Shown: positions 2,391-43,057, numbered from the stretch's first letter. The stretch is DNA of 64,000 nt from Alphaproteobacteria bacterium (GCA_009779745.1 WRDR01000004.1:3713-67712), one strand, 5' to 3'. The notes: generated from the letters alone by a model not told the origin. Numbers and translations are program-made.

Positions 2391-2417
2391 TGTTGAGAGT
2401 GGAGTTAGTACGTATTC

Positions 2418-5069
2418 CTATTTCTTTTTCTTAGAAGTCTTAGCTGCCGGCTTCTTTCCGGACGCATTCATCTTAGCAGCCTTTGCGTCCAAGAACTCTA
2501 TGGCGTTTTCTAGGGACAGATCTTCCGGATCATAATCCTTAGTAACTGTCGCCATTACTTTGCCCCACTTCACATAAGGACCGAAACGCCCTTTGTTCAA
2601 GGTAATCGGTTTGGAGTCCTTCGGATGCGCGCCCAGCTCTTTTGCAGAAGAACTGGCTCTCCTGCCCTTGGAAGGCTCAGACAACAAAGCAACTGCTCTG
2701 TTGACATCAACAGTCAAAACATCATCTTCCGGAGTCAAACTTCTGTATGCAGAACCCATTTTTACATACTCGCCAAAACGCCCTATATCCGCAGTTATTT
2801 TCTCATTGGTCTCAGGGTGGACTCCAACCTCTCTGGGCAGGGACAAAAGCGAAAGTGCAGTATCAAAGTCAATACTGGTCGGATCCAGTTTTTTCGGCAG
2901 GCTTGTTCTTTTCGGTTTAGGAGCCGCCTCTTTTTTGGTCTTCTTTGCTTTTTTTGGCTTATCTTCTTTCGGCTCTGCAGCAACGGCATCAAGCTGAACA
3001 TAAGCACCGTAAGGACCGACTCTCACGGAAACCATGGCTCCGGTAACAGGGTCAGTCCCAAGCTCTCTTGGAGCCATTTCATCTTTAGAGTCCCCTCCCC
3101 CCTGCACAGCCAAAGGTCTTGTATTCTTGCATTCCGGATAATTGGAACAGCCCAAGAAAGCCCCGAATTTACCCAGCTTCAAACCCATTCTGCCAGTCTT
3201 GCATACCGGACAAAGACGCAAATCTTTTTCCGGCTCACCCTCTTCTTTCGGGAAAAAGTGCTGCTCCAGAACCTTATCCAAAACATCAATAACATCCGAG
3301 ATTTTCAGCTCTTTAGTATCATCAACAGCCTTAGAAAAAGCCTTCCAGAAATCTCTCAATACTTCTTTCCATTTAAGCCGCCCTCCGGAAACATCGTCCA
3401 GCTTTTCTTCGAGGTCAGCAGTAAAATCATACTGTACATACTCTTTGAAAAATTCTTCAAGAAAAACAGTAACTATCCTGCCTCTGTCTTCCGGAACAAA
3501 ACGCTTCTTGTCCAACCGCACATAGTCCCTATCCTGCAGCACTTGCATAATGCTGGCGTAAGTAGAAGGTCTTCCAATGCCAAGCTCTTCCAGTTTCTTC
3601 ACCAGAGATGCTTCCGTGTATCTCGGCGGAGGCTGCGTAAAATGCTGCTCCTGAGTTATTTGCTTAGTCTCTAGCCCGTCCCCTTCCTCCATTTTCGGAA
3701 GTCTGGTATCACCGTACCCGTCATTACCCTTTTGACCGCCTATATCCGCGTCGTCGCTGCCCTCTCTGTAAACCTTGAGCCAGCCGTCAAACACTACGAC
3801 AGAACCTGCTGCCCTAAACATAGCCTTACAGTTTTCCCTGTTCGCACTATTACTGTCTATAATATCCACAGAAACCTGATCGAGAACAACGCTGGTCATC
3901 TGAGACGCAACAGCTTTCTGCCAGATAAGCGTATATAATTCCAACTGTTCCTTATTGAGATACTTTGCTACATATTCAGGCCGCCTGCTTATATCCGTAG
4001 GTCTTATAGCCTCATGCGCTTCTTGAGCATTCTTTGCTTTGTTCTTGTAAATTCTCGGCGAGGACGGCAAATACTGCTGTCCGTAATCTTTTTCTATGAC
4101 TGCCCTGGCACCGGCAATAGCCTCGGAAGACAAATACACTCCGTCCGTTCTCATGTAGGTTATGAGTCCCACAGTATCGCCGCCTATATCCACTCCCTCA
4201 TACAGACCCTGAGCAATCCGCATAGTGCGAGTCGCTCCCAAACCTAATTTCCTCGAAGCCTCTTGCTGTAGTGTAGACGTTGTAAAAGGAGGAGACGGAT
4301 TTCTCTTTGTCTGTTTCCTCTCTATATGAAATACCTTATACGACAATTTGCTGACGCTGTCCAAAGCAGCTTGAGCCTCTTCCTTAGTAGACAGCGTGAA
4401 TTTCTCAAGTTTCTTCCCGTCCAAAATCATAAGATACGAGGGTACTGTTCCTTTTTCCTTAGTAAGAAATTCCCCTTCTATGCTCCAGAACTCTTGAATC
4501 TGAAACTTTTCAATCTCTACTTCTCTATCGCAAATCAGCCGTAAGGCAACAGACTGCACTCTTCCCGCAGATCTGGAGCCCGGAAGTTTCCGCCATAAGA
4601 CTGGCGACAGCGAAAATCCCACCAAATAATCCAACGCTCTTCTTGCCATATACGCATCGACTAAATCGCTGTCTATTTCTCTCGGGTGAGATATGGCTTC
4701 CGTTACTGCCTTTTTCGTAATCTCGTTAAATGATACTCGCTTGATGCTTTTGTTTTTGTCCAAGCCCTTTTCATGCAGAATCTCTTTTATGTGCCATGCT
4801 ATAGCTTCTCCCTCTCTGTCAGGGTCGCTTGCCAGAAAAACAGAAGAAGCAGCTTTGACCGCCTTTGTTATTTCCGATACTGCCTTCTTAGCCTTCTCGT
4901 TGAACTCCCAGTCCATAGCAAAGTCTTCTTCCGGCCGCACAGACCCGTCTTTAGGCAGCAAATCCCGTACATGCCCGTAAGACGACAGAACCGCATAATC
5001 CTTTCCCAGATACTTATTCAGGGTTTTTGCTTTTGCAGGAGATTCAACTATGACAACTTTATCAGACAC
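2418..5069 (-). CDS. topA: DNA topoisomerase I
   Basis: The N-terminus MSDKVVIVESPAKAKTLNKYLGKDYAVLSSYGHVRDL is the TOPRIM signature, at a length of 883 aa. The C-terminus carries a Zn-ribbon (CPVCKTG…CSNYPEC) and a lysine-rich tail. Confidence 0.95.
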   Translation of the reverse strand: MSDKVVIVESPAKAKTLNKYLGKDYAVLSSYGHVRDLLPKDGSVRPEEDFAMDWEFNEKAKKAVSEITKAVKAASSVFLASDPDREGEAIAWHIKEILHEKGLDKNKSIKRVSFNEITKKAVTEAISHPREIDSDLVDAYMARRALDYLVGFSLSPVLWRKLPGSRSAGRVQSVALRLICDREVEIEKFQIQEFWSIEGEFLTKEKGTVPSYLMILDGKKLEKFTLSTKEEAQAALDSVSKLSYKVFHIERKQTKRNPSPPFTTSTLQQEASRKLGLGATRTMRIAQGLYEGVDIGGDTVGLITYMRTDGVYLSSEAIAGARAVIEKDYGQQYLPSSPRIYKNKAKNAQEAHEAIRPTDISRRPEYVAKYLNKEQLELYTLIWQKAVASQMTSVVLDQVSVDIIDSNSANRENCKAMFRAAGSVVVFDGWLKVYREGSDDADIGGQKGNDGYGDTRLPKMEEGDGLETKQITQEQHFTQPPPRYTEASLVKKLEELGIGRPSTYASIMQVLQDRDYVRLDKKRFVPEDRGRIVTVFLEEFFKEYVQYDFTADLEEKLDDVSGGRLKWKEVLRDFWKAFSKAVDDTKELKISDVIDVLDKVLEQHFFPKEEGEPEKDLRLCPVCKTGRMGLKLGKFGAFLGCSNYPECKNTRPLAVQGGGDSKDEMAPRELGTDPVTGAMVSVRVGPYGAYVQLDAVAAEPKEDKPKKAKKTKKEAAPKPKRTSLPKKLDPTSIDFDTALSLLSLPREVGVHPETNEKITADIGRFGEYVKMGSAYRSLTPEDDVLTVDVNRAVALLSEPSKGRRASSSAKELGAHPKDSKPITLNKGRFGPYVKWGKVMATVTKDYDPEDLSLENAIEFLDAKAAKMNASGKKPAAKTSKKKK

Positions 5070-5327
5070 TATTTTTTCCTTTTGTCTTTATGATTTATGC
5101 TATCTTTTATAGGCATACTTACATTAATACAAGAAATCTGTTTGTTTTTGACTTAAATCAAGAATAATCATTTATTGTACAACTAATCTTATTTAATTTT
5201 GGTTAATTAACACTATGCGATTAACATTGGTTTAATGTTTTAGATTAACTTTTAGTTATAATTTGTTGTAATTACTTTCATCTTTTTATGGTACTATATA
5301 ATTATAGATCCTAAAGGGAGAAGTGAT

Positions 5328-6638
5328 ATGACAGCACATAATCCATACATAGTCAGCCTTGTTGCGGATGGTGACGAAAACAAACAGAGTTTCTTAAACT
5401 TAGACATAAGTACTCTGCATATAGATTTTGCCAACCTTAAACCAGAAGAATTTGGATTAAGTCCTGCCGACTTGGACATAAGTCCTTATCTTGTCATATT
5501 CGACAAGAAATATGCGCTTTTGAAACAACTGCCTGATATTGTCAAAACATCAATCGAAGCAAACATTAAGGAGAAGCCAGAATTTGTTCAGGAGATAGAA
5601 TTTGATTCTACTTGCGACACTTTGAATCTAGACGAACTGCAAAAACTGCTCGCATCAGAAAACAGAAAAGACGAGTTACAATCTATACGCGGACTGAAGA
5701 GAATAGATGGAAAAGACAATACTGCCAATATAAAACTGTTCTCATATTTAAGCAGGGAATTGAAAGCAAAAGTATGCGCTGTTGTTGCATTGGAAAAGTA
5801 TTATCCAAACAGTGATGATTATAATAGAGACGATATGATTCACATTCGGGACTATATTGTGCAGAAAGTGGACAATATGGACAAAGCCGAAGTGAGTAGG
5901 CTGAAACCGGATAGCTTTACTAAAGCCGCTACACAAGAAGCAATGTACGAAGAAGCGGAAACTTTTTTTGAGGCTGAGCGAGTTAAAGCAGGTGCTACTC
6001 AAGAGCAACCCGGAGATAAGGAGGAACTAAGCAGTTTCTATTTGAACGGCACGGAATATAAATTTTATAATCTATTGACAGAAAACGCTCTTAAGTACGA
6101 AGGCGATAAAATGAATCATTGTGTTGGTGGGTATTGGTCTAAGGTGGAAACGAAGGAAGTAAGAATTATATCGCTTCGTGATGACAAGAACGAGCCACGC
6201 GCAACATTGGAAATTGATACTAAGACAAATACCATAATCCAGATTCAAGGCAGAAAAAACAAAAACATCGACGAAAAATATCATCAGATGATTCTTGATT
6301 TTGTTTCTGAGCCTAAGTGGGAGATTGAGGTGAATGATAGATTTTTCGAAAAAATCCCAGCGGTTCGTTTGAAAGATGGTAAGATAAAATTGTGGACTGA
6401 TCTCGATATAGAAGATGCACGCAATGGCAACTTCACACGAGATTATGGTAATTCTTCTATGCACACAGAACAACGAAAAAATGTAAACACTATCGTCGCA
6501 TTAGGAACTGACGATGATAAGTGGTTTCTCAACAACACCTTGATCCTAAATAACATAACACAAAAGTGGTTTGAGTTGTTGCCGGGTTCCCAAATAGCTG
6601 CAAAAAAAACACCTTTTAACCATACACATAGACGGTAA
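5328..6638 (+). CDS. PcfJ-like protein (mobile-element associated), probably the 5' part of a frameshifted gene
   Basis: The segment LKYEGDKMNHCVGGYWSKVETKEVRIISLRDDKNEPRATLEIDTKTNTIIQIQGRKNKN matches my recollection of the PcfJ-domain core (L..EG..M.HCV..Y…SLR…TLE…Q.RG..N). The stop codon follows an A8 run at 6602-6609, and frame +1 stays open from 6598 into the next ORF. Confidence 0.5.
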   Translation: MTAHNPYIVSLVADGDENKQSFLNLDISTLHIDFANLKPEEFGLSPADLDISPYLVIFDKKYALLKQLPDIVKTSIEANIKEKPEFVQEIEFDSTCDTLNLDELQKLLASENRKDELQSIRGLKRIDGKDNTANIKLFSYLSRELKAKVCAVVALEKYYPNSDDYNRDDMIHIRDYIVQKVDNMDKAEVSRLKPDSFTKAATQEAMYEEAETFFEAERVKAGATQEQPGDKEELSSFYLNGTEYKFYNLLTENALKYEGDKMNHCVGGYWSKVETKEVRIISLRDDKNEPRATLEIDTKTNTIIQIQGRKNKNIDEKYHQMILDFVSEPKWEIEVNDRFFEKIPAVRLKDGKIKLWTDLDIEDARNGNFTRDYGNSSMHTEQRKNVNTIVALGTDDDKWFLNNTLILNNITQKWFELLPGSQIAAKKTPFNHTHRR

Positions 6639-6738
6639 AACAGATCTTAATAAAGATATTGTTGACGCAATCATATGCAGCAATATAGACGAGCTTATAA
6701 TAAACGGGGATTATAATAATGCACACGACCAAAACAGC

Positions 6739-7317
6739 ATGCCTATAATACATGCAGAGGATACTATAAATACACTCAAGGAATGTGAACGTTTGATCAG
6801 GCAATCAAAAGATCTTGTCCGTGTTACGATAGGCGGTGTCAATAGTGAACAGACATATCATCTTGTGCAAGCGATCGTAGAGAATCCTTCAATAAAAAAT
6901 TTCAAGGCATACAAAATACTGACAGAGGCTGCTATAAATTTAGTTGCTAAAAGTAATAATATAACTACTTTTTCAACTTGCTCAGAAGTCTACAAAGGCC
7001 GTTCCCGCCACTACTCTGAAGAAATAATTAGCGAAAGCATAACGGTCATTCGTACAGCATTGGAAACCGGAGAAAACCATAATTTACATCAAGTGTTTTT
7101 TCAACATAGTCCGATTCCAGAACTGGAACCTCTGCTTGCAGACAACAGACAAAAAGCAACCCGAGTTGTATTTGCAGATGTTTCCGAGACAGAGCATAAA
7201 ATAGAGCCTGAGCAGCCGGATGGAAAGCTTCTGTTACACAATATGGCAATTTGTCCCCTCCAGACGACACGTCCACAAACGACAAATCGTCCCTCGCTAA
7301 CTTGTTATGTTATATAG
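6739..7317 (+). CDS. Hypothetical protein; likely the 3' part of the same PcfJ-like gene, separated by a frameshift
   Basis: The reading frame is open upstream to 6598 (LQKKHLLTIHIDGKTDLNKDIVDAIICSNIDELIINGDYNNAHDQNSMPIIHAED…). A 1-nt contraction of the A8 run at 6602-6609 would fuse it in frame with 5328-6638. Confidence 0.4.
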   Translation: MPIIHAEDTINTLKECERLIRQSKDLVRVTIGGVNSEQTYHLVQAIVENPSIKNFKAYKILTEAAINLVAKSNNITTFSTCSEVYKGRSRHYSEEIISESITVIRTALETGENHNLHQVFFQHSPIPELEPLLADNRQKATRVVFADVSETEHKIEPEQPDGKLLLHNMAICPLQTTRPQTTNRPSLTCYVI

Positions 7318-7659: not shown

Positions 7660-8787
7660 CTAACCAATCAACACCACCCTATTGCCCGTAACCCTCTGAG
7701 CTATGCCGGACAGCTCCAGTTCCGTAATCACCATAAACACAACATTTATCGGCAATGCACAGTCTCTGCCCAGTTCGTCAATATCAACCGGCGAGTAACT
7801 CATTTTAGACAATATCACCTCTCTGGCTTTAAGAACCGTATCATCATCAACACTTTCTATAATTGAAGGAATACTATCATCTTCAAAGAAACTCTCATTC
7901 CTCTGAAACAAATCAAAAGGTTTAGACTGAAGCCCTACTATAATATCCTGAACGCCTTCAGTAATATGAGCTCCCTGACGTATCAGCTCATTAGTGCCGC
8001 TGGCACGTGGATCTCGCGGAAACCCAGGCACTGCAAACACTTCTCTTCCCTGTTCCAACGCCTTGTTCGCAGTTATAAGAGAGCCTGATTTCCTGTTAGC
8101 CTCTACAACCGCGACTCCAAGACTTAAGCCTGAGATTATTCTGTTTCTTCTGGGAAAGGAGCTTTTAATAGGCTCTGTTCCCAAAGGTATCTCGGACACA
8201 ACACAGCCCTTAGTCTTCATAACTTCATACAGTTTATTATTAGACGCAGGATACACAACATCTACGCCTCCGGCAAAAACAGCTATAGTTCCGGTCTCTA
8301 TACTCGCCTCATGCACCGCAGTGTCAATACCCATAGCAAAGCCTGAAACCGTAACAAATTTGTGCTTGCCCAAATCGCTTGCCAGCGTCTTTGCCATTCC
8401 GATTCCATTGGTAGACGCATGTCTGGTTCCGACAATCGCCACACATTTTCTATGTAAAAGCTCTTCATTTCCCAGCACATATATAACAGGCGGAGCATCT
8501 TCCGTGTTATACAGCATTTCCGGATAGTCCTCATCGCACAACGGTATGCAGCGTCCGCCAATAGCTTTCAGCTTCTTTAGTTCCTCTATAACAGATTGTT
8601 CAGACGGAATTTTCAGAGGCTTTTGCAAACCGCGCCTTTCGAATGAAGGCAAAGCCTTAAATACAGAATCTGCTGTTTTGAATTTATTAATAAGATTGCA
8701 AAAAGTTATAGGACCTATTCTTTCTGTTCCGGCAAGCCTTATCCAATTTATCAGTTCCGAATCAGTCAGCTTTTGCTTTTGCATCAT
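7660..8787 (-). CDS. dprA: DNA processing protein DprA (Smf)
   Basis: The protein is 375 aa. The Rossmann-like DprA core is present (VAIVGTRHASTNG…VSGFAMGIDTAVHEASIETGTIAVFAGGVDVVYPASN). It lies upstream of topA on the same strand, the classic dprA-topA arrangement. Confidence 0.9.
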   Translation of the reverse strand: MMQKQKLTDSELINWIRLAGTERIGPITFCNLINKFKTADSVFKALPSFERRGLQKPLKIPSEQSVIEELKKLKAIGGRCIPLCDEDYPEMLYNTEDAPPVIYVLGNEELLHRKCVAIVGTRHASTNGIGMAKTLASDLGKHKFVTVSGFAMGIDTAVHEASIETGTIAVFAGGVDVVYPASNNKLYEVMKTKGCVVSEIPLGTEPIKSSFPRRNRIISGLSLGVAVVEANRKSGSLITANKALEQGREVFAVPGFPRDPRASGTNELIRQGAHITEGVQDIIVGLQSKPFDLFQRNESFFEDDSIPSIIESVDDDTVLKAREVILSKMSYSPVDIDELGRDCALPINVVFMVITELELSGIAQRVTGNRVVLIG

Positions 8788-9392
8788 ATTTTGATCCTTG
8801 GCTCAGTACCTTTCAAAAGCCTTCCTATGTTTCCTTTGTGCTTAAAGAAAATCAAAATAATCAACACAATAGATAAAGGTATTACTTCTATCCTGTCAAA
8901 TAACCATAAGCCTATAGGAATTAAAACAGAAACTAAAAGCGTAGCAAGCGAAGAAAGTCTGGTAATATAAGCTATAGGAATCCACAGCACCATAGTAGCA
9001 AGCGCAGTATACGGCGATAAAACCGCAAGCACGCCTATACCGGTCGCAACTCCTTTTCCTCCCTTGAATCCGAGCCACACCGGAAACATATGCCCCAAAA
9101 CAGCCGCAAGAGGCACGACAAATAAAATAAAAACATCACCCCAATCACTTAGCACATCTCCTAAAAGCAAAACAGAAAAACAAACGGCAGCCGCTCCTTT
9201 AAAAGCATCGCACAAAAGAGTTAATACTGCCAACGACTTATTGCCTGTTCTTAAAACATTGGTTGTACCGATATTTCCGGAACCTATCTTTCGAATGTCT
9301 CCATACCCAAACATCTTAGTTAGTATAAGCCCGAAAGGAATGCTGCCCAAAAGATACGCAGCAACAGTAACTATGGCAAAATCCATTCTCAA
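8784..9392 (-). CDS. plsY: Glycerol-3-phosphate acyltransferase PlsY
   Basis: The N-terminus AIVTVAAYLLGSIPFGLILTKMFGYGDIRKIGSGNIGTTNVLR is the PlsY signature. The protein is 202 aa and a membrane protein. Confidence 0.9.
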   Translation of the reverse strand: MRMDFAIVTVAAYLLGSIPFGLILTKMFGYGDIRKIGSGNIGTTNVLRTGNKSLAVLTLLCDAFKGAAAVCFSVLLLGDVLSDWGDVFILFVVPLAAVLGHMFPVWLGFKGGKGVATGIGVLAVLSPYTALATMVLWIPIAYITRLSSLATLLVSVLIPIGLWLFDRIEVIPLSIVLIILIFFKHKGNIGRLLKGTEPRIKI

Positions 9393-23475: not shown

Positions 23476-24003
23476 TTAAGCTCCCTGCTTGCTTCTTGCC
23501 GACATAACCCTTGCCAGCTGACCCGCAGGAGCCTGAAGAACACCGGCAATCTTAGTCGCAGGTGCCTGAACCAAACCAATAATCTTTGCTCTAAGCTGAT
23601 CCAGAGAAGGCAGCGAAGCCAGCATTTTAACCTGCTGCGCCTCCATTAGCTCTCCGTTCATAACAGCTCCAACAACCTTGAAGCTCTCGTTTTTCTTAGA
23701 GAACTCTGCCGATACCTTAGCCGCAGCTACAGGATCCTTAGAAAAAGCAAGTACAGTCGGACCCTGCAAAAATTTCTCCAGCGCAGAGAACGGTCCCTTT
23801 TCAATCACCCGCTTTATCAGAGTATTTTTTGCTATCTTAAGCCCTACGCCTTCCGCCCGCATAGCAACTCTGAGAGATCTTGTTTGATCGGCATTAAGGC
23901 CCATCTGTTGATTTACAACGATGATAGAAGCATCTTTTATCTCATCACCAATTTCTTTGACTAGCTTTTCTTTTTCCAGCCTGTTTTCACTTAACTCGGA
24001 CAT
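23476..24003 (-). CDS. rplJ: 50S ribosomal protein L10
   Basis: The protein is 175 aa with the L10 fold. It lies directly upstream of rplL, separated by a 65-nt spacer. Confidence 0.9.
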   Translation of the reverse strand: MSELSENRLEKEKLVKEIGDEIKDASIIVVNQQMGLNADQTRSLRVAMRAEGVGLKIAKNTLIKRVIEKGPFSALEKFLQGPTVLAFSKDPVAAAKVSAEFSKKNESFKVVGAVMNGELMEAQQVKMLASLPSLDQLRAKIIGLVQAPATKIAGVLQAPAGQLARVMSARSKQGA

Positions 24004-26450: not shown

Positions 26451-26862
26451 AGCTTTTACCGCCTTTTTAAGGTAATACCTTAACTTGTTTTTCTTAATGT
26501 TCTACATTAGATTGTTTGGGCAATCATTTGTATGATATACATAATTTATATAGTAATACCAAATCCTCAGATAATGGATTTGATAATTCTCAACTCCGCA
26601 TGATCTATATCGCTATCACTTAGAGTATTGTCATTAACGCTTTTTTAAATAAATCTCAAGCCTTTTTTACAAACTCCCTATTCTATGCGTTTTTTAAAAA
26701 TCCCTGCTTGCAAAAATACAACACCCCCCAGATATACAATGGACGAATCAGCTATTTACTTGTTATATTTTCTTCTTAACTAGACAAATAACTATTATGT
26801 ATGTAACCTGTGGTGGTTGATTCTGTCTCCTTAATAATCGGATAAATCTGGGGTCCTGTACG

Positions 26863-28188
26863 ATGCTCTCTTACAAAAAATTAACTAAACATGGATATCT
26901 CGCTGCTGTATCCGCTCTCCTTCTTTCCGCAGCCGCCTATCCTTCTTTTGCTCTCGGTGCTGCTAAAAATCCCGAAAGCGGCTCCGTGACTCAGATTCTC
27001 AGCGAATCTTCCTTCCCCGCAGCCGATAATTCTTTCGCAGCCTCCTTGTTCAGCGGTACTGACCCCCTTGCAGGTCTCGACAAATCCTCCGGCACTCTCG
27101 TAGGCGACCGTACTTTGCTCCTGCGTGACGATGCCATAAAGCTCCGTAATTCCGTCAATCTCCACTCTAACGAATTTGCCATAATGCGCGCCGGCGGCGT
27201 TTCTGAAGCTGTTCAATACCACAGCACTGTCGCCGCTATCATAGCAAGATTGCAAAACGGCACTACCCGCGGAAACCCTATTCTGCTCCGCCAGTGGGAA
27301 GACGCTGACGCAGCCCTCAATGAGGTCATGTACTCCCTGAACAGACTCAACACCCTAGAACTGGCTACTAACAGTGATGCCTCCACTGCTTCCTATCTTA
27401 GGGATTCAGTCAATGCCACTTTTGATTTAGCCGGTGCTATTGACGAAGATCATGATGCTCTGCGCGCCGTAAAAGATGAAGTCGCCCGCATATCTATTCA
27501 TTTGGACTCTCTAAGGGAACAGATTAATAACGATATTCAAAGACAGTCTGCCTTTTTGTTGAATGAAAGATCTAATCTGCAATCTCTTGCTCTTTCTATC
27601 AGCCGCGGCGAGCTTATCACCAAACCGGATGTCACCCCTAAGCCGGCTCCTGCCAAGGCTCCGGAGGCTAGGATTTTAGAGACTAAGATTTCAGAGCCTG
27701 TGCTTCAAAATGCAGAGGTAACCCCTGTTGAACAGCGTCCTTTGTTCGCTACTGATAATGATTCTTTCAGGATTTCCGAGCCTACTGACCTTCCTATTTC
27801 TTCTTCGCCTGCGTACTCTTTGGATCCCGTGTCTGCGTCTGCTGCCAATGCCGGCGCAAAGAAGGAACAAATCAACTTGGGGCATTTGCTGGTAAGAATA
27901 CGCTTTGACCAGCCTAATGTCATATACGGACCTCAGCTTAATGAGGCTGTTGAGAATGCCTTGCAAAAAATGCCGGACAGTGATTTCTTTGTGCTGTCTA
28001 TGTACCCTTCGCTGGGAGACGCTGATTTGGTTGCTGAAAATCAACGCACTGCAAAGATGTATGCGGACGAAGTGCGGCGTGCTTTGATTCAGTCGGGTTT
28101 GAATCCGGCCAGAATTAATTTGATTAGCACAGGTTCCGGGACAATCTCGGTGCCGGAGGTTTTGGTTTATATCAAATCTGCCCAATAG
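26863..28188 (+). CDS. Exported hypothetical protein with a coiled-coil middle region and a possible OmpA-like C-terminal domain
   Basis: A signal peptide (LAAVSALLLSAAAYPSFALGAAKN) is present. The C-terminal segment …NQRTAKMYADEVRRALIQSGLNPARINLISTGSGT loosely resembles an OmpA/MotB peptidoglycan-binding motif. Confidence 0.35.
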   Translation: MLSYKKLTKHGYLAAVSALLLSAAAYPSFALGAAKNPESGSVTQILSESSFPAADNSFAASLFSGTDPLAGLDKSSGTLVGDRTLLLRDDAIKLRNSVNLHSNEFAIMRAGGVSEAVQYHSTVAAIIARLQNGTTRGNPILLRQWEDADAALNEVMYSLNRLNTLELATNSDASTASYLRDSVNATFDLAGAIDEDHDALRAVKDEVARISIHLDSLREQINNDIQRQSAFLLNERSNLQSLALSISRGELITKPDVTPKPAPAKAPEARILETKISEPVLQNAEVTPVEQRPLFATDNDSFRISEPTDLPISSSPAYSLDPVSASAANAGAKKEQINLGHLLVRIRFDQPNVIYGPQLNEAVENALQKMPDSDFFVLSMYPSLGDADLVAENQRTAKMYADEVRRALIQSGLNPARINLISTGSGTISVPEVLVYIKSAQ

Positions 28189-29321: not shown

Positions 29322-29327
29322 TTTTTT

Positions 29328-29362
29328 AAAATGGAAAATAGAAAATTGAAAATGGAAAATGA
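29328..29362 (+). repeat. GGAAAAT-type heptamer tandem array (5 units), left flank of clpS
   Basis: The array reads aaaatggaaaatagaaaattgaaaatggaaaatgaaaa. Confidence 0.8.
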
Positions 29363-29681
29363 AAACACCACCGGACATGCACCCACTCCCGACAACACCG
29401 CCTTAAAAGAACAAAAGGTTAAGCTCAAACGCCCTCCGTTGTATAAAGTTATTCTGCTGAATGATGATTATACTCCTATGGATTTTGTTGTAAGTATCAT
29501 TGTTTCTATTTTCAATAAGCCCGTTGATGCTGCAAAAGCCCTGATGCTCGAGATTCATAAAAATGGTAAGGCGGTCTGCGGAGTCTACCCCTTTGAGGTA
29601 GCCGAAACAAAAATGCTCCAAGTTCTTTCTATTGCCAAAGGCGAAGAGCACCCTCTCCAGTGCGTTATTGAGAAAGAGTGA
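29331..29681 (+). CDS. clpS: ATP-dependent Clp protease adaptor ClpS
   Basis: The segment YKVILLNDDYTPMDFVVSIIVSIFNKPVDAAKALMLEIHKNGKAVCGVYPFEVAETK is the ClpS signature. The first ~10 codons (MENRKLKMEN) are encoded by the GGAAAAT repeat array, so the true start may be at 29352. Confidence 0.85.
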   Translation: MENRKLKMENENTTGHAPTPDNTALKEQKVKLKRPPLYKVILLNDDYTPMDFVVSIIVSIFNKPVDAAKALMLEIHKNGKAVCGVYPFEVAETKMLQVLSIAKGEEHPLQCVIEKE

Positions 29682-29699
29682 TAGGAATGTAGAACTATC

Positions 29700-29724
29700 A
29701 ATTTTCCATTTTCCATTTTCAATT
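29700..29724 (-). repeat. Heptamer array in inverted orientation, right flank of clpS
   Basis: The array reads attttccattttccattttcaattt. Confidence 0.8.
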
Positions 29725-29745
29725 TATAGTGCTACCCTCTTCCCC

Positions 29746-30519
29746 ATGTATACTTACAACATAGAATCATTTCTCGCAGGGCATACCTTTGCTTTTTTAC
29801 TCCTGCTTTGCCGCATCGGTGCCTTTCTTATGGTAGTTCCCGGGTTCGGCGAGAAATTCGTTCCGGTGCGCATAAGAATGGTTTTCGCTTGCCTAATATG
29901 CTTGCTAATAGTCCCTCCTTTTGCTTCCTTAATGCCTCCTATTCCTCAGTCTACTGCGCTTCTCGCAGTTATCATCTTCAAAGAAATGCTAATAGGCGTT
30001 TTTTTCGGAATCCTAGTGCGTATGCTGCTCCTTACTCTCGATGCTGCAGGTGCTGTTATCGGTATGCATTCCGGACTCTCTAATGCCAACACTATGAACC
30101 CTGCTTTGATGTCTCAGAGCCAGCTCCCCAGTACTTTTCTCACTATGTCCGGCATTGTCATGATTTTTGTAATCGGGCTTGATCACTATCTAATCAAGAC
30201 TCTCATTGCTTTGTATAACTCCTTTCCTGTATCGGACGCTCCTTTGATGCTCGGCGATATGTCTAAAACCGTGATGACTACTGCAAGCAGAACTTTTAGT
30301 TTCGGCGCAAGCCTAGCTGCTCCTTTCTTCGTCATAGGGCTTTTAATCTATGCTACTACAGGCATTATTCAAAGACTCCTGCCCTCTATTCAGCTCTTCT
30401 TCCTTATGCTTCCTATTCAGATTTGGGGCGGTTTGGCTCTTATGCTTCTCACCGTTTCCGTAATTCTTTCCTTGTGGGTTCAGTTTTTTGAGAACTCTGT
30501 TTCTACTTTTTTTCTATAG
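29746..30519 (+). CDS. fliR: Flagellar biosynthetic protein FliR
   Basis: The protein reads MYTYNIESFLAGHTFAFLLLLCRIGAFLMVVPGFGEKFVPVRIRMVFACLI… and is a polytopic membrane protein of FliR length (257 aa). The ORF-track start at 29632 overlaps clpS and is rejected. Confidence 0.8.
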   Translation: MYTYNIESFLAGHTFAFLLLLCRIGAFLMVVPGFGEKFVPVRIRMVFACLICLLIVPPFASLMPPIPQSTALLAVIIFKEMLIGVFFGILVRMLLLTLDAAGAVIGMHSGLSNANTMNPALMSQSQLPSTFLTMSGIVMIFVIGLDHYLIKTLIALYNSFPVSDAPLMLGDMSKTVMTTASRTFSFGASLAAPFFVIGLLIYATTGIIQRLLPSIQLFFLMLPIQIWGGLALMLLTVSVILSLWVQFFENSVSTFFL

Positions 30520-30532
30520 TTAGAATTTCCAA

Positions 30533-31606
30533 ATGGCAGAGCAAAATCAAGACCAAGATCAAGACCAAAAAACAGAAGAAGCCTCTGACAAAAAACTCGA
30601 AGAGGCTCGGCAAAAGGGGCAAATTCCGGTAAGCAGAGAAGTCGCCTCTTGGGTCTCGCTTTTGGGCGTTCTGGTCATGGTCGCCTTTGTCTCACCTCAC
30701 GCAAGCGCATCGCTCGGCAAGTATTTAGGCTCTTTTTTAGAGTACTCTTATACAATTTCTCTCACGCAAACTAACTTTCAGGCTCTCTTTTTCAGCGTCA
30801 TAGGCAATCTGATTCTCATACTGGGCATAGCTTTCTGCGTTATGATAGTTTTCGTCATACTGGGTTATATGATTCAGACCGGGTTTTTTATGTCTTTGGA
30901 CTTACTGGAGCCTAATTTCTCTAAGCTGTCTCCGATAAACGGACTGAAAAAAATGTTTTCCATGCAGTCTGTTGTAGAACTTTTCAAATCCCTCCTTAAG
31001 CTTCTGCTTCTTGGAAGCGTTGCTTACTTGGTTCTCATGTCTCTGGCCAGAGAGTCAATGCACTTCTCAGGAGGCTCTTTGTCTCAAGTTATGCCGTTTT
31101 TATATGACAATCTGACTTTTCTGATAAAGATGCTGCTTTTAGTCTTTCTGGTCATAGCTGCGTTTGATTTGTTTTGGACTAGGTTTCAGTATTTCAGAAA
31201 ACTGCGCATGACAAAGACTGAAGTCAAGGAAGAGTACAAGCAGTCTGAAGGAGATCCTATGATTAAATCCAGACTCCGGCAGATACGAATGGAAAAATCC
31301 AGAAAGCGCATGATGGCTGAGGTACCTAAGGCGGATGTAGTCATTACTAACCCGACTCACTATGCCGTAGCCCTCAAGTATAATGCGCTCAAAATGAGAG
31401 CTCCCGTAGTTGTGGCAAAGGGCATTAATTTAATAGCCTTACGCATCAGGGAAGCAGCGGAAGAGCACAAAGTACCGATAGTAAGCAATCCGCCTCTTGC
31501 AAGAACACTGCATTCCAGCGTAGATATAGACGAAGAGATTCACATAGAGCATTACAAGGCTGTGGCAGAGATAATTTCTTATGTTTACAAGACGCGAAAA
31601 AAATAG
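30533..31606 (+). CDS. flhB: Flagellar biosynthetic protein FlhB
   Basis: The N-terminus has …EEASDKKLEEARQKGQIPVSREV. The conserved NPTH autocleavage site (VVITNPTHYAVAL) is present. The protein is 357 aa. Confidence 0.9.
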   Translation: MAEQNQDQDQDQKTEEASDKKLEEARQKGQIPVSREVASWVSLLGVLVMVAFVSPHASASLGKYLGSFLEYSYTISLTQTNFQALFFSVIGNLILILGIAFCVMIVFVILGYMIQTGFFMSLDLLEPNFSKLSPINGLKKMFSMQSVVELFKSLLKLLLLGSVAYLVLMSLARESMHFSGGSLSQVMPFLYDNLTFLIKMLLLVFLVIAAFDLFWTRFQYFRKLRMTKTEVKEEYKQSEGDPMIKSRLRQIRMEKSRKRMMAEVPKADVVITNPTHYAVALKYNALKMRAPVVVAKGINLIALRIREAAEEHKVPIVSNPPLARTLHSSVDIDEEIHIEHYKAVAEIISYVYKTRKK

Positions 31607-31615
31607 GAGTAAGTC

Positions 31616-33409
31616 ATGAATTTATTGCAATCAGCTATAGAAATTCAGTTAAAAGGAGACTTGTTAGAAGCAGAGAGTCTCTATCGGCAGGCTATCGGGC
31701 AAAACCCGAAGGATGCCGATGCCTATTCTCTTTTGGGAACAAACCTTGCAACGCAAAAACGGCACGAAGAAGCCATAGAGTGCATTAATGAGGCTCTTTC
31801 TTTGGATAATACCTCCGGACTTTTCTATTCCCACAAGGGAAATGTTCTTATGGCTGCAAATAGAATTGAGGAGTCTATCGAGGCGTTCAGAAAGGCTATA
31901 GAGCTTACGCCTGATGTAGATTTGTTTCATTTCAATCTGGGCAATGCCTTACGGGTGAATAAGGACTATAAGGGTGCAATCAAAGAGTATGAAAAGAGCC
32001 TGGAGCTGAACCCAAAACATATATTAGCGATGAATAACTTAGTGCTGTCCTTAGTGGAAGAAAAAAAGCTGAAAGAAGCATTATCTTATGCGTATAAAAT
32101 TGTATTTTTAGTTCCTAATTACGCAGAAGGCTGGGCAACGGTATCAAATGTTGAAGAGAAGCTGAAGAATTACAAAAAGGCTGAAGAAGCGGCTGAAAAA
32201 GCACTGGAGCTGGATCCGAAAAACTTAACGGCACTGTTCGGATATGGGATAATTATGCACAGGCTCAATCGGCCTGAAGAAGCTGTCCGGGCATATCAAA
32301 AAGCATTATCGATTGACAATACAAAAGCTGATTTTTGGCATAATTTATCAATGTCCTACCGCGCTCTCAACAAGCTGGAAGATGCAGAGACCGCAGCGCG
32401 AAAGGTAGTAGAAACGGCCGGAGAAGCACTGGACAATGACGATGATATTATGACTATAGATGAGACTAAGATAGGAGAAAGGCACTTCTCTCTTGCATTA
32501 GCGGAGCTGCTGCAAGGCAAGTATGAGAAAGGCTTTGCGAGATACAGGGCTAGGTTCAAAGCTATTGAAACATTGACTAGGCGTGAAATGCCGGCTCCTT
32601 TGTGGCAAGGCGAATCTTTAAAAGGAAAAGAGATTTTAATCTGCCACGAACAAGGTTACGGAGATACTATAATGATGGCCCGCTTTTTTCCTATTGTGAA
32701 AGAGATGGGAGCCAGAATAATTTTTAAAACCGAAAGACCCTTGCTGCGGCTCATGCAGACGATGGATTCCATAGACGAAGTCATAGCCTCCGACATGCCG
32801 GACCCTAAGACGGATTTTTACTGTCATACTTTTGATTTGCCTTATATTTTGAAGACTAATCTAGAGACGCTACCCAAGCATGCTCCGTATATAAACATAG
32901 ACTCTATACCTGATAACGTTGCTATTGAGTTTCCGGAAAAGCTCAAAGTAGGTATTGTATGGGGCGGAAGCCATAAACATAAAAATGATACCAACAGATC
33001 CATTTCACTGGAAGTTTTCAGCAAGCTCTTGGACGCAAAAGGAGCAACTTTCTACTCGCTTACCAAGGATCTTAAAAGCGGAGATTCGCATTTATTCGCA
33101 GAGCTTTTGAAGTCCGGTAAAATTAAACATCATATAGGCCCTCATTTAAAAGATTTTGTATATTCCGGAAAAATTATAAACAGACTTGATTTAGTTATCT
33201 CGTGCGACACTGCAACAGCTCATCTTGCCGGAGCCCTTGGAAAGCCGGTATGGATTTTACTGCCTTTTGATGCAGACTGGAGATGGCTTGCGGACAGAGA
33301 GGATTCCGTATGGTACCCGACAGCGCGGCTCTTCCGTCAGCCGTCTCCGGGAGACTGGGACAGTGCTATTGCTAAGGCGAAAGAGGCTTTAGAAATGTGG
33401 AATGAGTAG
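31616..33409 (+). CDS. TPR-repeat protein with a C-terminal GT9-like glycosyltransferase domain (candidate FlmG-like flagellin glycosyltransferase)
   Basis: There are ≥8 TPR motifs (AYSLLGTNLATQKRHEEAIECINEALSLDN…). The C-terminal domain has GT9-like motifs: HEQGYGDTIMMARFFP, VGIVWGGSHKH, CDTATAHLAGALGKPVWILLP and DWRW. It starts 10 nt after the flhB stop codon. Confidence 0.6.
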   Translation: MNLLQSAIEIQLKGDLLEAESLYRQAIGQNPKDADAYSLLGTNLATQKRHEEAIECINEALSLDNTSGLFYSHKGNVLMAANRIEESIEAFRKAIELTPDVDLFHFNLGNALRVNKDYKGAIKEYEKSLELNPKHILAMNNLVLSLVEEKKLKEALSYAYKIVFLVPNYAEGWATVSNVEEKLKNYKKAEEAAEKALELDPKNLTALFGYGIIMHRLNRPEEAVRAYQKALSIDNTKADFWHNLSMSYRALNKLEDAETAARKVVETAGEALDNDDDIMTIDETKIGERHFSLALAELLQGKYEKGFARYRARFKAIETLTRREMPAPLWQGESLKGKEILICHEQGYGDTIMMARFFPIVKEMGARIIFKTERPLLRLMQTMDSIDEVIASDMPDPKTDFYCHTFDLPYILKTNLETLPKHAPYINIDSIPDNVAIEFPEKLKVGIVWGGSHKHKNDTNRSISLEVFSKLLDAKGATFYSLTKDLKSGDSHLFAELLKSGKIKHHIGPHLKDFVYSGKIINRLDLVISCDTATAHLAGALGKPVWILLPFDADWRWLADREDSVWYPTARLFRQPSPGDWDSAIAKAKEALEMWNE

Positions 33410-38763
<5,354 letters not shown>

Positions 38764-38785
38764 TCAAATTTCCACTTTCAACTTT

Positions 38786-41700
38786 TCACATTTCGCTTTT
38801 TTCTTCGGCTTCTATCATCTGCGGCTTTTTCTGGCTCATTTCTACGTTCAAGCCCAAGGAACGAAGCTCCTTCACAAGCACGTTGAAAGATTCCGGAATG
38901 CCGGCTTCGAAATTATCCTCGCCTCTTATGATAGACTCATAAACCTTAGTGCGTCCTGAAACGTCATCGGATTTCACCGTGAGTATTTCCTGAAGCGTGT
39001 AAGCAGCACCGTATGCCTCAAGTGCCCACACTTCCATTTCTCCGAAGCGCTGTCCTCCGAACTGAGCCTTACCGCCCAGAGGCTGCTGAGTAACTAAAGA
39101 ATATGGTCCGATAGATCTTGCGTGAATCTTGTCATCAACCAAATGGTGCAGTTTCAGCATGTATATGTAGCCGACCGTAACGGGTCTATCGAATTTTTCT
39201 CCTGTTCTTCCGTCAATAAGATAGGTCTGACCTGTCTTATCAAGCCCTGCCTGTTCCAGCATGACCTCAATATCGGAACCTTTGGCTCCGTCAAATACCG
39301 GAGTTGCAAAAGGAATACCGGTCCTCAAATTAGCTGCAAGTTCCAATACCTGAACATCATTAAGCTTAGAAACGTCCTTGTTGTACATCTCGGCTCCGTA
39401 CACTTCTTTGAGTTTGCTTTTTACGTCATTCAAAGATATTAAAGCCTTTTCATTGCTCGCTTTCTGTCTTACCTGCTGTTCACAGTACCCGTCATAAACA
39501 GCAGCAACCTGCTTTCCGAGTCCGGCAGAAGCCCAGCCGAGATGAGTCTCTAAAATCTGACCTATGTTCATACGGGAAGGCACGCCCAAAGGATTAAGTA
39601 TAATATCCATAGGAGTTCCGTCTTCCATATAAGGCATATCTTCTATCGGAAGAATTCTGGAAACAACACCCTTGTTTCCGTGACGGCCTGCCATTTTGTC
39701 TCCGGGCTGCAGCTTGCGCTTCACAGCCACAAAAACCTTGACCATTTTCATCACTCCCGGAGGCAGCTCATCGCCGCGCTGTAATTTGGAAACCTTATCC
39801 TCAAATCTCTTTTTGAGAGCGTTAATCTGCTCGTCAAAAACAGCGGACAGCTTCTCAACCTGCTCCATAGTCTTGGCGTTCTTTACAGTAATCTGTCTCC
39901 ACAGAGAAGGAGCAAAAGAAGACAACGTCTCTTCGGTAATAGTGCTGTCCACAGGGAATTCCTTAGGACCTTTGTCCGCCTTCTTGCCTAAAATCAGCTC
40001 TTTCAAGTGGGCATAAAAACCGCGCTCTATGATATGACGCTCGTCATCTCTATCCTTTGCAAGACGCTCTATTTCCTGACGCTCAATAGCTATAGCGCGC
40101 TGGTCTTTTTCTACGCCTCTGCGGGAAAATACTCTCACCTCAACAATAGTTCCGTTCACTCCCGGAGGCAGCCTCAAACTGGTATCGCGCACATCGGCAG
40201 CCTTTTCTCCGAAAATAGCTCGGAGCAGCTTCTCTTCCGGAGTCATCGGACTTTCACCCTTGGGAGTAACTTTACCTACAAGAATATCTCCCGGATTGAC
40301 TTCCGCACCAATGTATACAATACCGGTTTCGTCTAAATTACGGAGAGCTTCCTCACCTACGTTGGGAATGTCTCTGGTGATTTCTTCCTGACCCAGTTTA
40401 GTATCGCGCGCCATCACCTCAAATTCCTCAATGTGAATAGAGGTGAACACATCGTCTTTCACAATACGCTCGGATATAAGTATAGAATCCTCATAGTTGT
40501 ACCCGTTCCAAGGCATGAATGCGCAAAGCACGTTGCGCCCCAGTGCCAATTCTCCGAGTTCGGTAGCAGGACCGTCAGCAATAATATCGTCTTTGCTAAT
40601 CCTGTCGCCAACTTTGACTATAGGCTTCTGAGTTATACAAGTGCTCTGATTTGAACGCTGGAATTTCAGAAGATTGTAAATGTCAACGGAAGGAGCGGAA
40701 GCATCTTGTACCTGATCGGCACGAATGACTATGCGGGTGGCATCAACCTGATCAACAACACCGGAACGCTTGGCTACAATAGTGACTCCGGAATCTCTTG
40801 CAACAACAGACTCCATGCCCGTGCCTACAAGAGGAGCATCGTTATGCAGCAAAGGCACAGCCTGACGCTGCATGTTGGAGCCCATCAAAGCTCTGTTGGC
40901 GTCATCGTTCTCTAAGAAAGGAACAAGAGCCGCCGCAACGGATACTATCTGTTTAGGAGAAACATCTATCAAATCCACATTCTCAACAGGCACAACCATA
41001 ATATCGCCGTCCGTACGGACTATGACGGTCTCGTCAACAATCTTGTTGTTCTTGTCCAGCTCAACATTAGCCTGAGCAATATTGTGCTTGCCCTCTTCCA
41101 TAGCGGACAAATACACTATTTCATCAGTAACCTTGCCGTTCTTGACCTTGCGGTACGGACTCTCGATAAAGCCGTACTGATTGACTCTGGCGTAGGTTGC
41201 CAAAGAGCTGATAAGACCGATGTTCGGACCTTCGGGAGTTTCAATAGGACATATGCGCCCATAGTGTGTCGGGTGCACGTCACGGACTTCAAAGCCTGCG
41301 CGTTCTCTGGTAAGACCGCCGGGTCCTAATGCAGAGACTCTGCGCTTATGAGTAATCTCGGACAAAGGATTAGTCTGATCCATAAACTGAGAAAGCTGAG
41401 ACGAACCAAAGAATTCTCTCACCGCAGCAGCCGCAGGTTTCGCATTTATTAAATCATGCGGCATCATAGTGTCAATCTCAATAGAACTCATGCGTTCACG
41501 TATGGCGCGTTCCATACGCACAAGACCTATGCGATACTGATTCTCCATAAGCTCGCCCACAGAGCGTACGCGCCTGCTGCCCAAGTGGTCAATATCGTCC
41601 ACCTCGCCGTGCCCGTCTTTAAGCCCGCACATAATCTTGAGAATTTTGATAATATCCTCTTTCCTTAGAGTCCTTATCTGATCATCGGTATCAAACCCAA

Positions 41701-43057
41701 GCCTAGAATTCATCTTGACTCTTCCGACCGAAGACAAATCATATCTCTCTAAGCTAAAGAACAAAGAGTGGAACAGATTATCAGCAGACTCCAGCGTAGG
41801 AGGCTCACCCGGACGCATGACTCTGTAAATGTCCAGCAATGCCTCTTCTCTTGTAGTGTTCTTGTCCGCAGCCAGAGTATCGCGCATGTAAGATCCGACG
41901 TTCACATTGTCGATACCAAGCACGGAAATCTCTTTGCCGCCCATTTTTTCGAAAATGTCCAGCTTTTCCTTTGTAATCTCGTCTCCGGCTTCGAACAGAA
42001 TCTCTCCGTTATTCTCGTCTACTATGTCAACGGAAACAAACTTCCCGATGAGTTCGTCTTCTTGTATTAATATCTCTTTAAGCCCGTTGTCCGTGAGCTT
42101 AGTCAGCAGTCTCGGCGTAACCTTAGTTCCGGCCTCTACAACAGCCTTGCCGGTCTTAGCGTTGACTAAATCATTTAAGAGCTTCAGCCCCTTATAGCTG
42201 TCTGCAACGAACGGAGTAGACCAGCCGCTCTTAGCCTTCTTATAAAGAACAGCCTCATAAAAGCCTGCTAAAATTTCTTCCTTGGACATTCCCTGCACTT
42301 CGTGGAGTTCCAAGGGTCTGCCTTCTTTCTTACGCTTTGCGCGCAGCTTTTCCGTACTCGCGGAATCCAGCGCATACAAAATAGTAGTGGCAGGCAGCTT
42401 TCTTCTTCTGTCAATACGGGCGTATGCCAAATCCTTGGCATCGAACTCGAAATCCAACCAAGAGCCGCGGTACGGAATGATTCTGGCAGAGAACAAATAC
42501 TTTCCGGACGAATGAGACTTTCCGCCGTCATGATCAAAGAAAACGCCCGGGCTGCGGTGCATTTGGCTTACGATAACGCGTTCGGTTCCGTTAATGATGA
42601 AGGTTCCGTTTGCAGTCATAAGAGGCATATCGCCCATATAAACATCTTGTTCTTTGATGTCTCTGATAGACTTCATGCCTGTATTTTCCTCGACATCGAA
42701 TACGGTCAGACGCAAAGTAACTTTAAGCGAGGCGGAGAATGTTACTCCGCGCTGCTGGCACTCTTCCACGTCATATTTAGGCTGCTCCAGCTCGTAAGCC
42801 AGAAAATCCAAAACCGCCCGCCCTGAGAAATCCGCTATAGGAAAAGCAGATGCCAGAACATCTTGCAGACCTTTTCTTTCTCTTTTGTTCGCAGGAATAT
42901 CCATTTGAAGAAACTCGTCATAGGAGCGTCTTTGAACATCGATAAGGTTTGGCATCTCTGCTATTTCAGAGATACGTCCGAAACTTTTACGAATCCTTTT
43001 TCTTCCTGTGAATGAGTTGCTTGGGTTGATGCTGAGTAGTGCGCCGTTAGTCGCCAT
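38786..43057 (-). CDS. rpoB: DNA-directed RNA polymerase subunit beta
   Basis: The protein is 1423 aa. The N-terminus …[35 protein letters not shown] is alpha-type. A 480-bp AT-rich upstream region is not preceded by rplL. Confidence 0.97.

Follow-up and report, generated by a model that had tools for sequence, protein, structure and literature searches.

Two genes encoding tetratricopeptide repeat (TPR) proteins with a C-terminal glycosyltransferase (GT) domain are found in a 64-kb stretch of DNA (hereafter, the window) from a metagenome-assembled Alphaproteobacteria bacterium. One of them, which we call winA, is the open reading frame (ORF) at positions 31616-33409 on the plus strand, located directly behind the flagellar genes fliR and flhB. 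The other, winB, is a paralog at 624-2390, also on the plus strand. The original prediction saw in winA a candidate flagellin glycosyltransferase of the type known as FlmG in Caulobacter. Here, this assignment is examined using the order of genes in the window and in relatives, the domain architecture and fold of the proteins, and their homology and conserved residues.

Genes and spacing at the fliR-flhB-winA locus

The gene for FliR, a subunit of the flagellar type III export gate, occupies 29746-30519 on the plus strand (257 aa; Pfam PF01311 Bac_export_1, E = 8e-51; TIGR01400, E = 2e-45). Its start and length are identical in the public gene call on an identical contig, and the protein is 50-55% identical to FliR of the relatives L011-L014. 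The gene for the export switch protein, flhB, follows at 30533-31606 on the same strand (357 aa; Pfam PF01312 Bac_export_2, E = 5e-123; TIGR00328, 407 bits against a cutoff of 349 bits), and the NPTH autocleavage motif can be read off its translation. A protein identical to this FlhB has been recorded as FlhB of an alphaproteobacterial metagenome-assembled genome. The identical FlhB is also found, in unchanged gene order, on a 116.8-kb contig and two 17-kb contigs from other samples.

According to the ORF list and family scans, fliR, flhB and winA are three consecutive genes arranged head to tail on the plus strand. As originally noted, winA (597 aa) directly follows flhB: the stop codon of flhB ends at 31606 and the ATG of winA is placed at 31616, leaving a gap of 9 nt. 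The junction (31605-31615, plus strand) contains TAGGAGTAAGTCATG, where an AGGAG ribosome-binding site spans the flhB stop codon, 6 nt 5' of the winA ATG. No terminator-like site exists between flhB and winA, and terminator-like matches around the two genes are no commoner than in shuffled sequence. On the 3' side, an HD-domain gene (33410-34612) converges on winA with zero spacer, so that winA is the last gene of its transcription unit. On the 5' side, fliR is preceded by clpS and a tRNA-Arg gene. From this arrangement, winA is probably transcribed together with fliR-flhB. A frameshifted or spurious ORF was considered for winA and ruled out by the identical public gene call and the high confidence of the structural model described below.

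Architecture, active-site residues and relation to FlmG

A full-length AlphaFold model of winA was built from 67 aligned sequences, with a mean predicted local distance difference test (pLDDT) score of 95.9 and a predicted template modelling score of 0.90. In this model, residues 3-267 (31622-32416, plus strand) form 16 helices by DSSP, that is, a superhelix of eight TPR hairpins, in addition to capping helices. Pfam TPR families are matched in the same region (TPR_2, E = 8e-44). A short helical connector comes next, and then two Rossmann-like halves make up a GT-B fold from about residue 339. The C-terminal domain as a whole (residues ~287-597; 32474-33406, plus strand) reached a pLDDT of 96.0 when modelled separately. 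In Foldseek searches with the GT domain, the best matches among solved structures were all GT9 enzymes: a Veillonella GT9 protein (3tov, E = 1.7e-9), the lipopolysaccharide (LPS) heptosyltransferases WaaF (1psw, E = 8.6e-8) and WaaC (2h1h and 2gt1, E = 2.4e-6), and the protein heptosyltransferase TibC (4rap and 4rb4, E = 1e-5, TM score 0.52). Folds of the O-GlcNAc-transferase type (GT41) and epimerase folds were clearly weaker. For the whole of winA, the best fold matches are SPINDLY, OGT and consensus eight-repeat TPR proteins, driven by the TPR part.

At the sequence level, the link of winA to GT9 appears faint. Against a cutoff of 22 bits for Pfam GT9 (PF01075), winA scores 17.0 (17.9 for the C-terminal domain alone) and the C-terminal domain of winB 13.0, all below threshold. 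No WaaC, WaaF or TibC chain was retrieved from the PDB at E <= 10 with a 17-sequence family profile, so that by sequence the GT domains are not grouped with the LPS heptosyltransferases, as the original prediction would lead one to expect. A PDB sequence search with the C-terminal domain of winA alone gave no relevant match, and a profile including the TPR columns found TPR proteins only and is uninformative for the GT domain. On the other hand, hhalign of the family against a three-sequence GT9 profile (WaaC, WaaF and WaaU) aligned 248 columns with a probability of 96% (E = 1.7e-9). Against WaaC or WaaF singly, just a donor motif of 35-44 residues was aligned; the three-sequence profile was needed to cover the entire domain. 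The designation GT9-like is therefore established by fold and profile comparison and not by a passing Pfam match. With this qualification, the earlier description of winA as at least eight TPRs followed by a GT-B/GT9-like domain proved correct. Membership of winA in GT41 together with OGT was rejected on the fold ranking and the lack of a GT41 Pfam match; OGT matches in the PDB sequence search are confined to the TPR region.

Two motifs in the GT domain can be placed on the active site of WaaC. The first is E345-Q-G-Y-G-D350 (32648-32665, plus strand), of which Q, both G and D are invariant among 67-92 family members. In hhalign, G349-D350 falls on G12-D13 of WaaC. Asp13 is implicated as the catalytic base in WaaC (bioRxiv 10.1101/2021.06.16.448588), and Asp350 is the putative counterpart in winA. 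The second is C530-D-T-A-T-A-H-L-A-G539 (33203-33232, plus strand), a predicted donor-sugar motif that aligns with V-D261-T262-G-L-S-H266-L of WaaC. Its Asp531, Thr532 and His536 are invariant in the 67-member family alignment; in WaaC, Asp261 and His266 bind heptose hydroxyls and Thr262 contacts the phosphate (bioRxiv 10.1101/2021.06.16.448588). The motifs quoted in the original prediction were all located, CDTATAHLAG at 530 and DWRW at 554 in winA, and VDTASVHLAG at 520 and DWRW at 544 in winB.

The paralog itself is real: winB (588 aa) is 28% identical to winA over 545 aa (E = 9e-47) and has EQGLGD at 341 as the counterpart of the first motif. The invariant and near-invariant residues found among the 67-92 family members are all present in both proteins. 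For this reason both look catalytically competent, and winB seems to be a second active enzyme of the winA type. Since an N-terminal hydrophobic segment is absent in both, they are likely to be located in the cytoplasm. Residues 1-75 of winB (624-850 in the window) form a basic extension rich in Lys, Pro and Ser that looks disordered and has no equivalent in winA or FlmG.

FlmG (CCNA_01524 in Caulobacter crescentus; also Brevundimonas subvibrioides) uses pseudaminic or legionaminic acid as the donor. It is a protein of 596 aa, composed of a TPR domain (1-313) that binds flagellin and a GT domain (309-596) that glycosylates it (PMC7591256). The gene is activated in Caulobacter by CtrA along with early basal-body genes (PMC7591256), and the enzyme has been described as confined to Caulobacterales (bioRxiv 10.1101/2023.12.03.569772). 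By use of a 20-base published cloning primer (PMC7591256), flmG was fetched from a Caulobacter vibrioides genome (L001:1354-3144, minus strand), where it adjoins three flagellin genes. FlmG and winA are nearly equal in length, have the same order of N-terminal TPR and C-terminal GT-B domains, lack an evident signal peptide, and are linked to flagellar genes. However, flmG stands beside flagellin genes, whereas winA stands beside fliR-flhB with no flagellin gene in the 64 kb. In BLASTP, winA and FlmG are collinear over both domains, with 24% identity over 506 residues (E = 3e-25). The alignment of winB with FlmG is also collinear (E = 7e-21), and FlmG itself has a sub-threshold Pfam GT9 match, like winA. 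Judging from these alignments, the TPR + GT-B resemblance of winA and winB to FlmG is one of true homology. A neighbour-joining tree built from 233 GT domains places winA in a 39-member clade (bootstrap 75%) far from FlmG, whose nearest neighbours are other sequences; winB joins the winA clade weakly (bootstrap 18%). In the GT domain, winA is ~30% identical to FlmG versus 48-53% to its orthologs.

Several other known enzymes share part of this design. WaaC (HepI) and WaaF (HepII) have in common with winA the GT-B fold, the Gly-Asp catalytic-base motif and the D-T-x-x-x-H donor motif. They differ in being 9-16% identical to winA in structural or profile alignments, with no sequence-level match, in having no TPR domain, and in acting on Kdo2-lipid A. 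TibC and Aah (BAHT) resemble winA in their GT9-like fold and in the cytoplasmic O-glycosylation of a protein that is later exported, but TibC is an iron-containing dodecamer without TPRs according to the entry descriptions of 4rap and 4rb4. The cysteine positions of winA show four scattered residues and no CxxC motif. OGT and SPINDLY also fuse a substrate-binding TPR domain to a glycosyltransferase that modifies cytoplasmic proteins, but their catalytic domain is of GT41, a much poorer fit to the GT domain of winA than GT9. The flagellin glycosyltransferase Maf-1 differs in having a GT-A domain with a C-terminal TPR. In a literature search, no characterised flagellar enzyme of the TPR + GT9 type was found besides FlmG. 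The cyanobacterial pilin Ogt was considered as another characterised precedent and dismissed as a GT41 enzyme.

Conserved neighbourhood and proposed function of winA

In three related metagenomic lineages (L011, L013 and L014), fliQ-fliR-flhB is followed by a winA ortholog, with gaps of 6-44 nt. In these lineages, FlhB is 59-62% identical to that of the window, and the winA orthologs (581-592 aa) are 46-50% identical to winA. The flanks of the block differ. On the 5' side, the window has clpS where the three lineages have fliQ. On the 3' side, it has the HD-domain gene and rpoC, whereas L011 and L013 have Ysc84-like, adenylosuccinate-lyase-family and NAD-synthase-family genes. Among the orthologs, the TPR domain (43-46% identity) is nearly as conserved as the GT domain (48-53%), as would be expected if the TPR domain has a conserved protein partner. 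The maintenance of a fliR-flhB-TPR-GT block at ~48% protein identity amid changed flanks, together with the tight spacing and the conserved TPR domain, argues for functional coupling with the flagellar export machinery.

The clpS gene of the window (29331-29681) stands at the place where fliQ directly precedes fliR in all five relatives compared (L011, L012, L013, L014 and L097). It is bracketed by a 23-25-nt inverted repeat (29325-29365 and 29698-29725) of the GAAAATGGAAAAT type, with 92-96% complementarity between its arms. Its left arm shares sequence with the first codons of clpS, and its right arm is located just 5' of fliR, where it overlaps a promoter-like match at 29703-29730.

Based on these results, we propose that winA glycosylates protein in the cytoplasm and that its target is a substrate of the flagellar export system, probably flagellin, with a donor that may be non-sialic. 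We assign this proposal a probability of roughly one half. In this scheme, winA would be transcribed with fliR and flhB, two early genes of the export gate. The eight TPRs at its N-terminus would bind the protein substrate, and the GT9-like GT-B domain would move a sugar from a nucleotide-sugar to the TPR-bound protein. Asp350 would serve as the general base, and Asp531, Thr532 and His536 would hold the donor. The substrate would be one of the proteins exported via the flagellar type III system, above all flagellin, and its modification would take place in the cytoplasm, prior to export, as in the case of FlmG in Caulobacter. Co-expression of winA with fliR-flhB would fit the logic of the CtrA-timed flmG, with the enzyme in place before flagellin is made. 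When the window was scanned for CtrA boxes (TTAA-N7-TTAA), 5 matches were found where 3.3 would be expected; the excess is not significant, and no match lies 5' of fliR. One match, not significant on its own, is found at 432-446, 178 nt 5' of the winB start codon.

A number of findings weigh against this proposal. The FlmG-type architecture of the original prediction stands as far as collinear homology is concerned, but not as orthology: winA and winB are not orthologs of FlmG, in view of the separate clade of winA. The residues around the sugar pocket also differ. winA and winB both keep D-T-A-x-x-H, R-S, DWRW and R-Q, whereas FlmG has S-N-A-T-I-N, Q-F, S-W-T-R and V-T at those positions, so that the pocket residues of the family are replaced. 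Because of this non-orthology and the different pocket, the function of FlmG may be transferred to winA by analogy only. The pseudaminic or legionaminic acid donor suggested earlier cannot be assumed either, since the pocket residues of winA match those of WaaC and differ from those of FlmG. Because winA and winB keep a heptosyltransferase-type pocket, the donor sugar is probably not transferable from FlmG, and the donor of winA may be neither of the two acids. No gene of the pseudaminic or legionaminic acid pathway was found among the scanned window ORFs of at least 150 aa, and no heptose pathway gene was seen in the 64 kb. Family scans of the window likewise found no flagellin, hook, chaperone or sugar-nucleotide biosynthesis gene, and fliQ was undetected in the whole window by tblastn. 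The conserved linkage to flhB implied by the original prediction holds in L011, L013 and L014 but not in other relatives. It is interrupted in L002, where flhB and an ortholog 48% identical to winA share a strand but are separated by two genes, one encoding pyruvate kinase. No TPR-GT gene follows flhB in L012 (FlhB 60% identical) or L097/L098 (51%), and in L003 the ortholog is relocated to a site after gltX-comEC. More distant loci of the 39-member clade lie beside P-type ATPase genes, cytochrome bd genes or a peptide-modification-like cluster, and neither flhB nor fliR was found in the flanks of any of 80 loci of the wider family (38-44% identity). The family is also very large: when 1.84 billion cluster representatives were scanned exhaustively with HMMER, 39,772 proteins reached E <= 0.001, and 17,182 of them E <= 1e-30. 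Finally, winB has no flagellar neighbours and is located between a divergent rplK and a convergent topA. The non-universal linkage, the diverse contexts of the family, the lack of flagellin and sugar pathway genes in the window and the failed orthology with FlmG together prevent a firm call.

The broken linkage in L002, L003, L012 and L097, the varied non-flagellar neighbours within the clade, the 80 loci without flhB or fliR, and the context of winB are what would be expected if winA were a protein glycosyltransferase for a non-flagellar substrate. Its position after flhB would then be an inherited gene order in one alphaproteobacterial lineage, with no functional meaning. This explanation is possible but, in our view, doubtful. 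The block persists at its level of divergence with both flanks changed and the genes still closely spaced, and the sole characterised relative, FlmG, acts on flagellin. It is also conceivable that winA is a heptosyltransferase-type enzyme for a non-protein acceptor such as the LPS core or another glycan, with the TPRs serving merely as a scaffold or for localisation. The top solved structures indeed comprise a GT9 protein and two LPS heptosyltransferases, WaaF and WaaC, the catalytic and heptose-binding residues of WaaC are conserved in winA, and one homolog is named as an ADP-heptose:LPS heptosyltransferase by one source. However, winA has no sequence-level match to WaaC, WaaF or TibC, its Pfam GT9 score is below the cutoff, and it is much nearer to the protein glycosyltransferase FlmG. 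Moreover, OGT, SPINDLY and FlmG, which are built in this way from an eight-repeat TPR domain joined to GT-B, are protein glycosyltransferases, and TibC shows that the GT9 fold serves protein acceptors too. A non-protein acceptor is thus quite improbable. TPR proteins are also known to act as type III secretion chaperones, and winA could in principle be catalytically inactive and serve the flagellar export apparatus as a chaperone or in its assembly: the gene directly follows the export-gate genes, and its TPR domain gives sub-threshold matches to the chaperone models SycD/LcrH and SctY. Against such a role, every invariant family residue is present, including the catalytic base and the donor-binding residues aligned with WaaC, and among the orthologs conservation is slightly higher in the GT domain than in the TPR domain. 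The pseudo-enzyme was rejected on the former ground, and a chaperone of this kind is hardly to be expected.

The wider family and other features of the window

A word-indexed search with the GT domain of winA gave >5,600 matches, the best of which is 52% identical. The names given by the sources range from 'TPR repeat-containing glycosyltransferase family protein' to 'ADP-heptose:LPS heptosyltransferase'. The 150 best-scoring HMMER matches (P0241-P0390) are mostly proteins of 1,000-3,100 aa in which the GT domain is present 2-6 times, the module being repeated in fused form. In addition, some metagenomic loci have up to four TPR-GT genes in tandem. Since the family is often multicopy, two copies in one genome are unremarkable. 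The two paralogs of the window, one of them outside any flagellar context, therefore say little about protein O-glycosylation, for which the original prediction had taken them as a hint.

A flagellin gene is present in the flank of 4 of the 80 wider-family loci (L050, L072, L079 and L084), while less than one would be expected by chance according to a rough estimate, not a formal test; this counts in favour of a flagellar substrate. In L084, four paralogous TPR-GT9-like genes are clustered within ~6 kb (942-6613), and a 278-aa flagellin gene (8326-9162) lies 1.7 kb from the nearest copy. In L072, a 549-aa flagellin gene (2982-4631) is located ~1.4 kb from the GT-domain match of the TPR-GT copy (6001-6939). 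Among the orthologs, that of L003 (7376-9173) is split by a frameshift near 8125 and is either a pseudogene or an assembly error. One member of the winA clade (P0019, ENA ERZ22666135) lies between genes for leader peptides of the Nif11/nitrile-hydratase-alpha type and those for a radical SAM enzyme and a C39-peptidase ABC transporter. Judging from this cluster, some members of the family may glycosylate ribosomal peptides.

The enzyme class itself is already known, from FlmG and from the TPR-containing glycosyltransferase family named by NCBI, and the window provides two additional members. Mild novelty lies in the attachment of a clade outside Caulobacterales to fliQ/fliR-flhB, in combination with a sugar pocket of the heptosyltransferase type. 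FlmG is the sole characterised member that we found in a TPR + GT9-like family of ~40,000 representative clusters, and its class is at present regarded as limited to Caulobacterales and, in its donors, to pseudaminic or legionaminic acid. It may be imagined that an uncultured alphaproteobacterial branch of the FlmG superfamily, encoded in an early flagellar export operon, attaches a non-sialic sugar, heptose-like or otherwise, to flagellin or another substrate of flagellar export. In this specific form the idea is unlikely, but if true, it would represent a chemistry of flagellar glycosylation and a gene arrangement not yet described for the FlmG enzyme class. Likewise, if the flhB-linked clade glycosylates flagellar proteins, TPR-guided protein glycosylation in the cytoplasm would be far more widespread than reported and would extend beyond sialic-acid-like sugars. 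The neighbourhood evidence is partial, and none of this is unexpected to a specialist or overturns present views; it provides a testable lead on non-sialic flagellar glycosylation. The window is a compact test case in this respect, with one gene in an early flagellar operon and one unlinked paralog.

Two further features of the window deserve mention. The rplKAJL-rpoBC genes, usually contiguous, are split into rplK (~1-300), rplJ (23476-24003) and rpoC/rpoB (34609-43057). All these pieces are on the minus strand, in a non-canonical order and with unrelated genes between them. A 441-aa ORF at 26863-28188 has a signal-peptide-like N-terminus and belongs to no NCBIfam family. It shows a sub-threshold OmpA-like match at its C-terminus (17 bits against a cutoff of 27), and a TTAA-N7-TTAA sequence lies upstream of it at 26634-26648.

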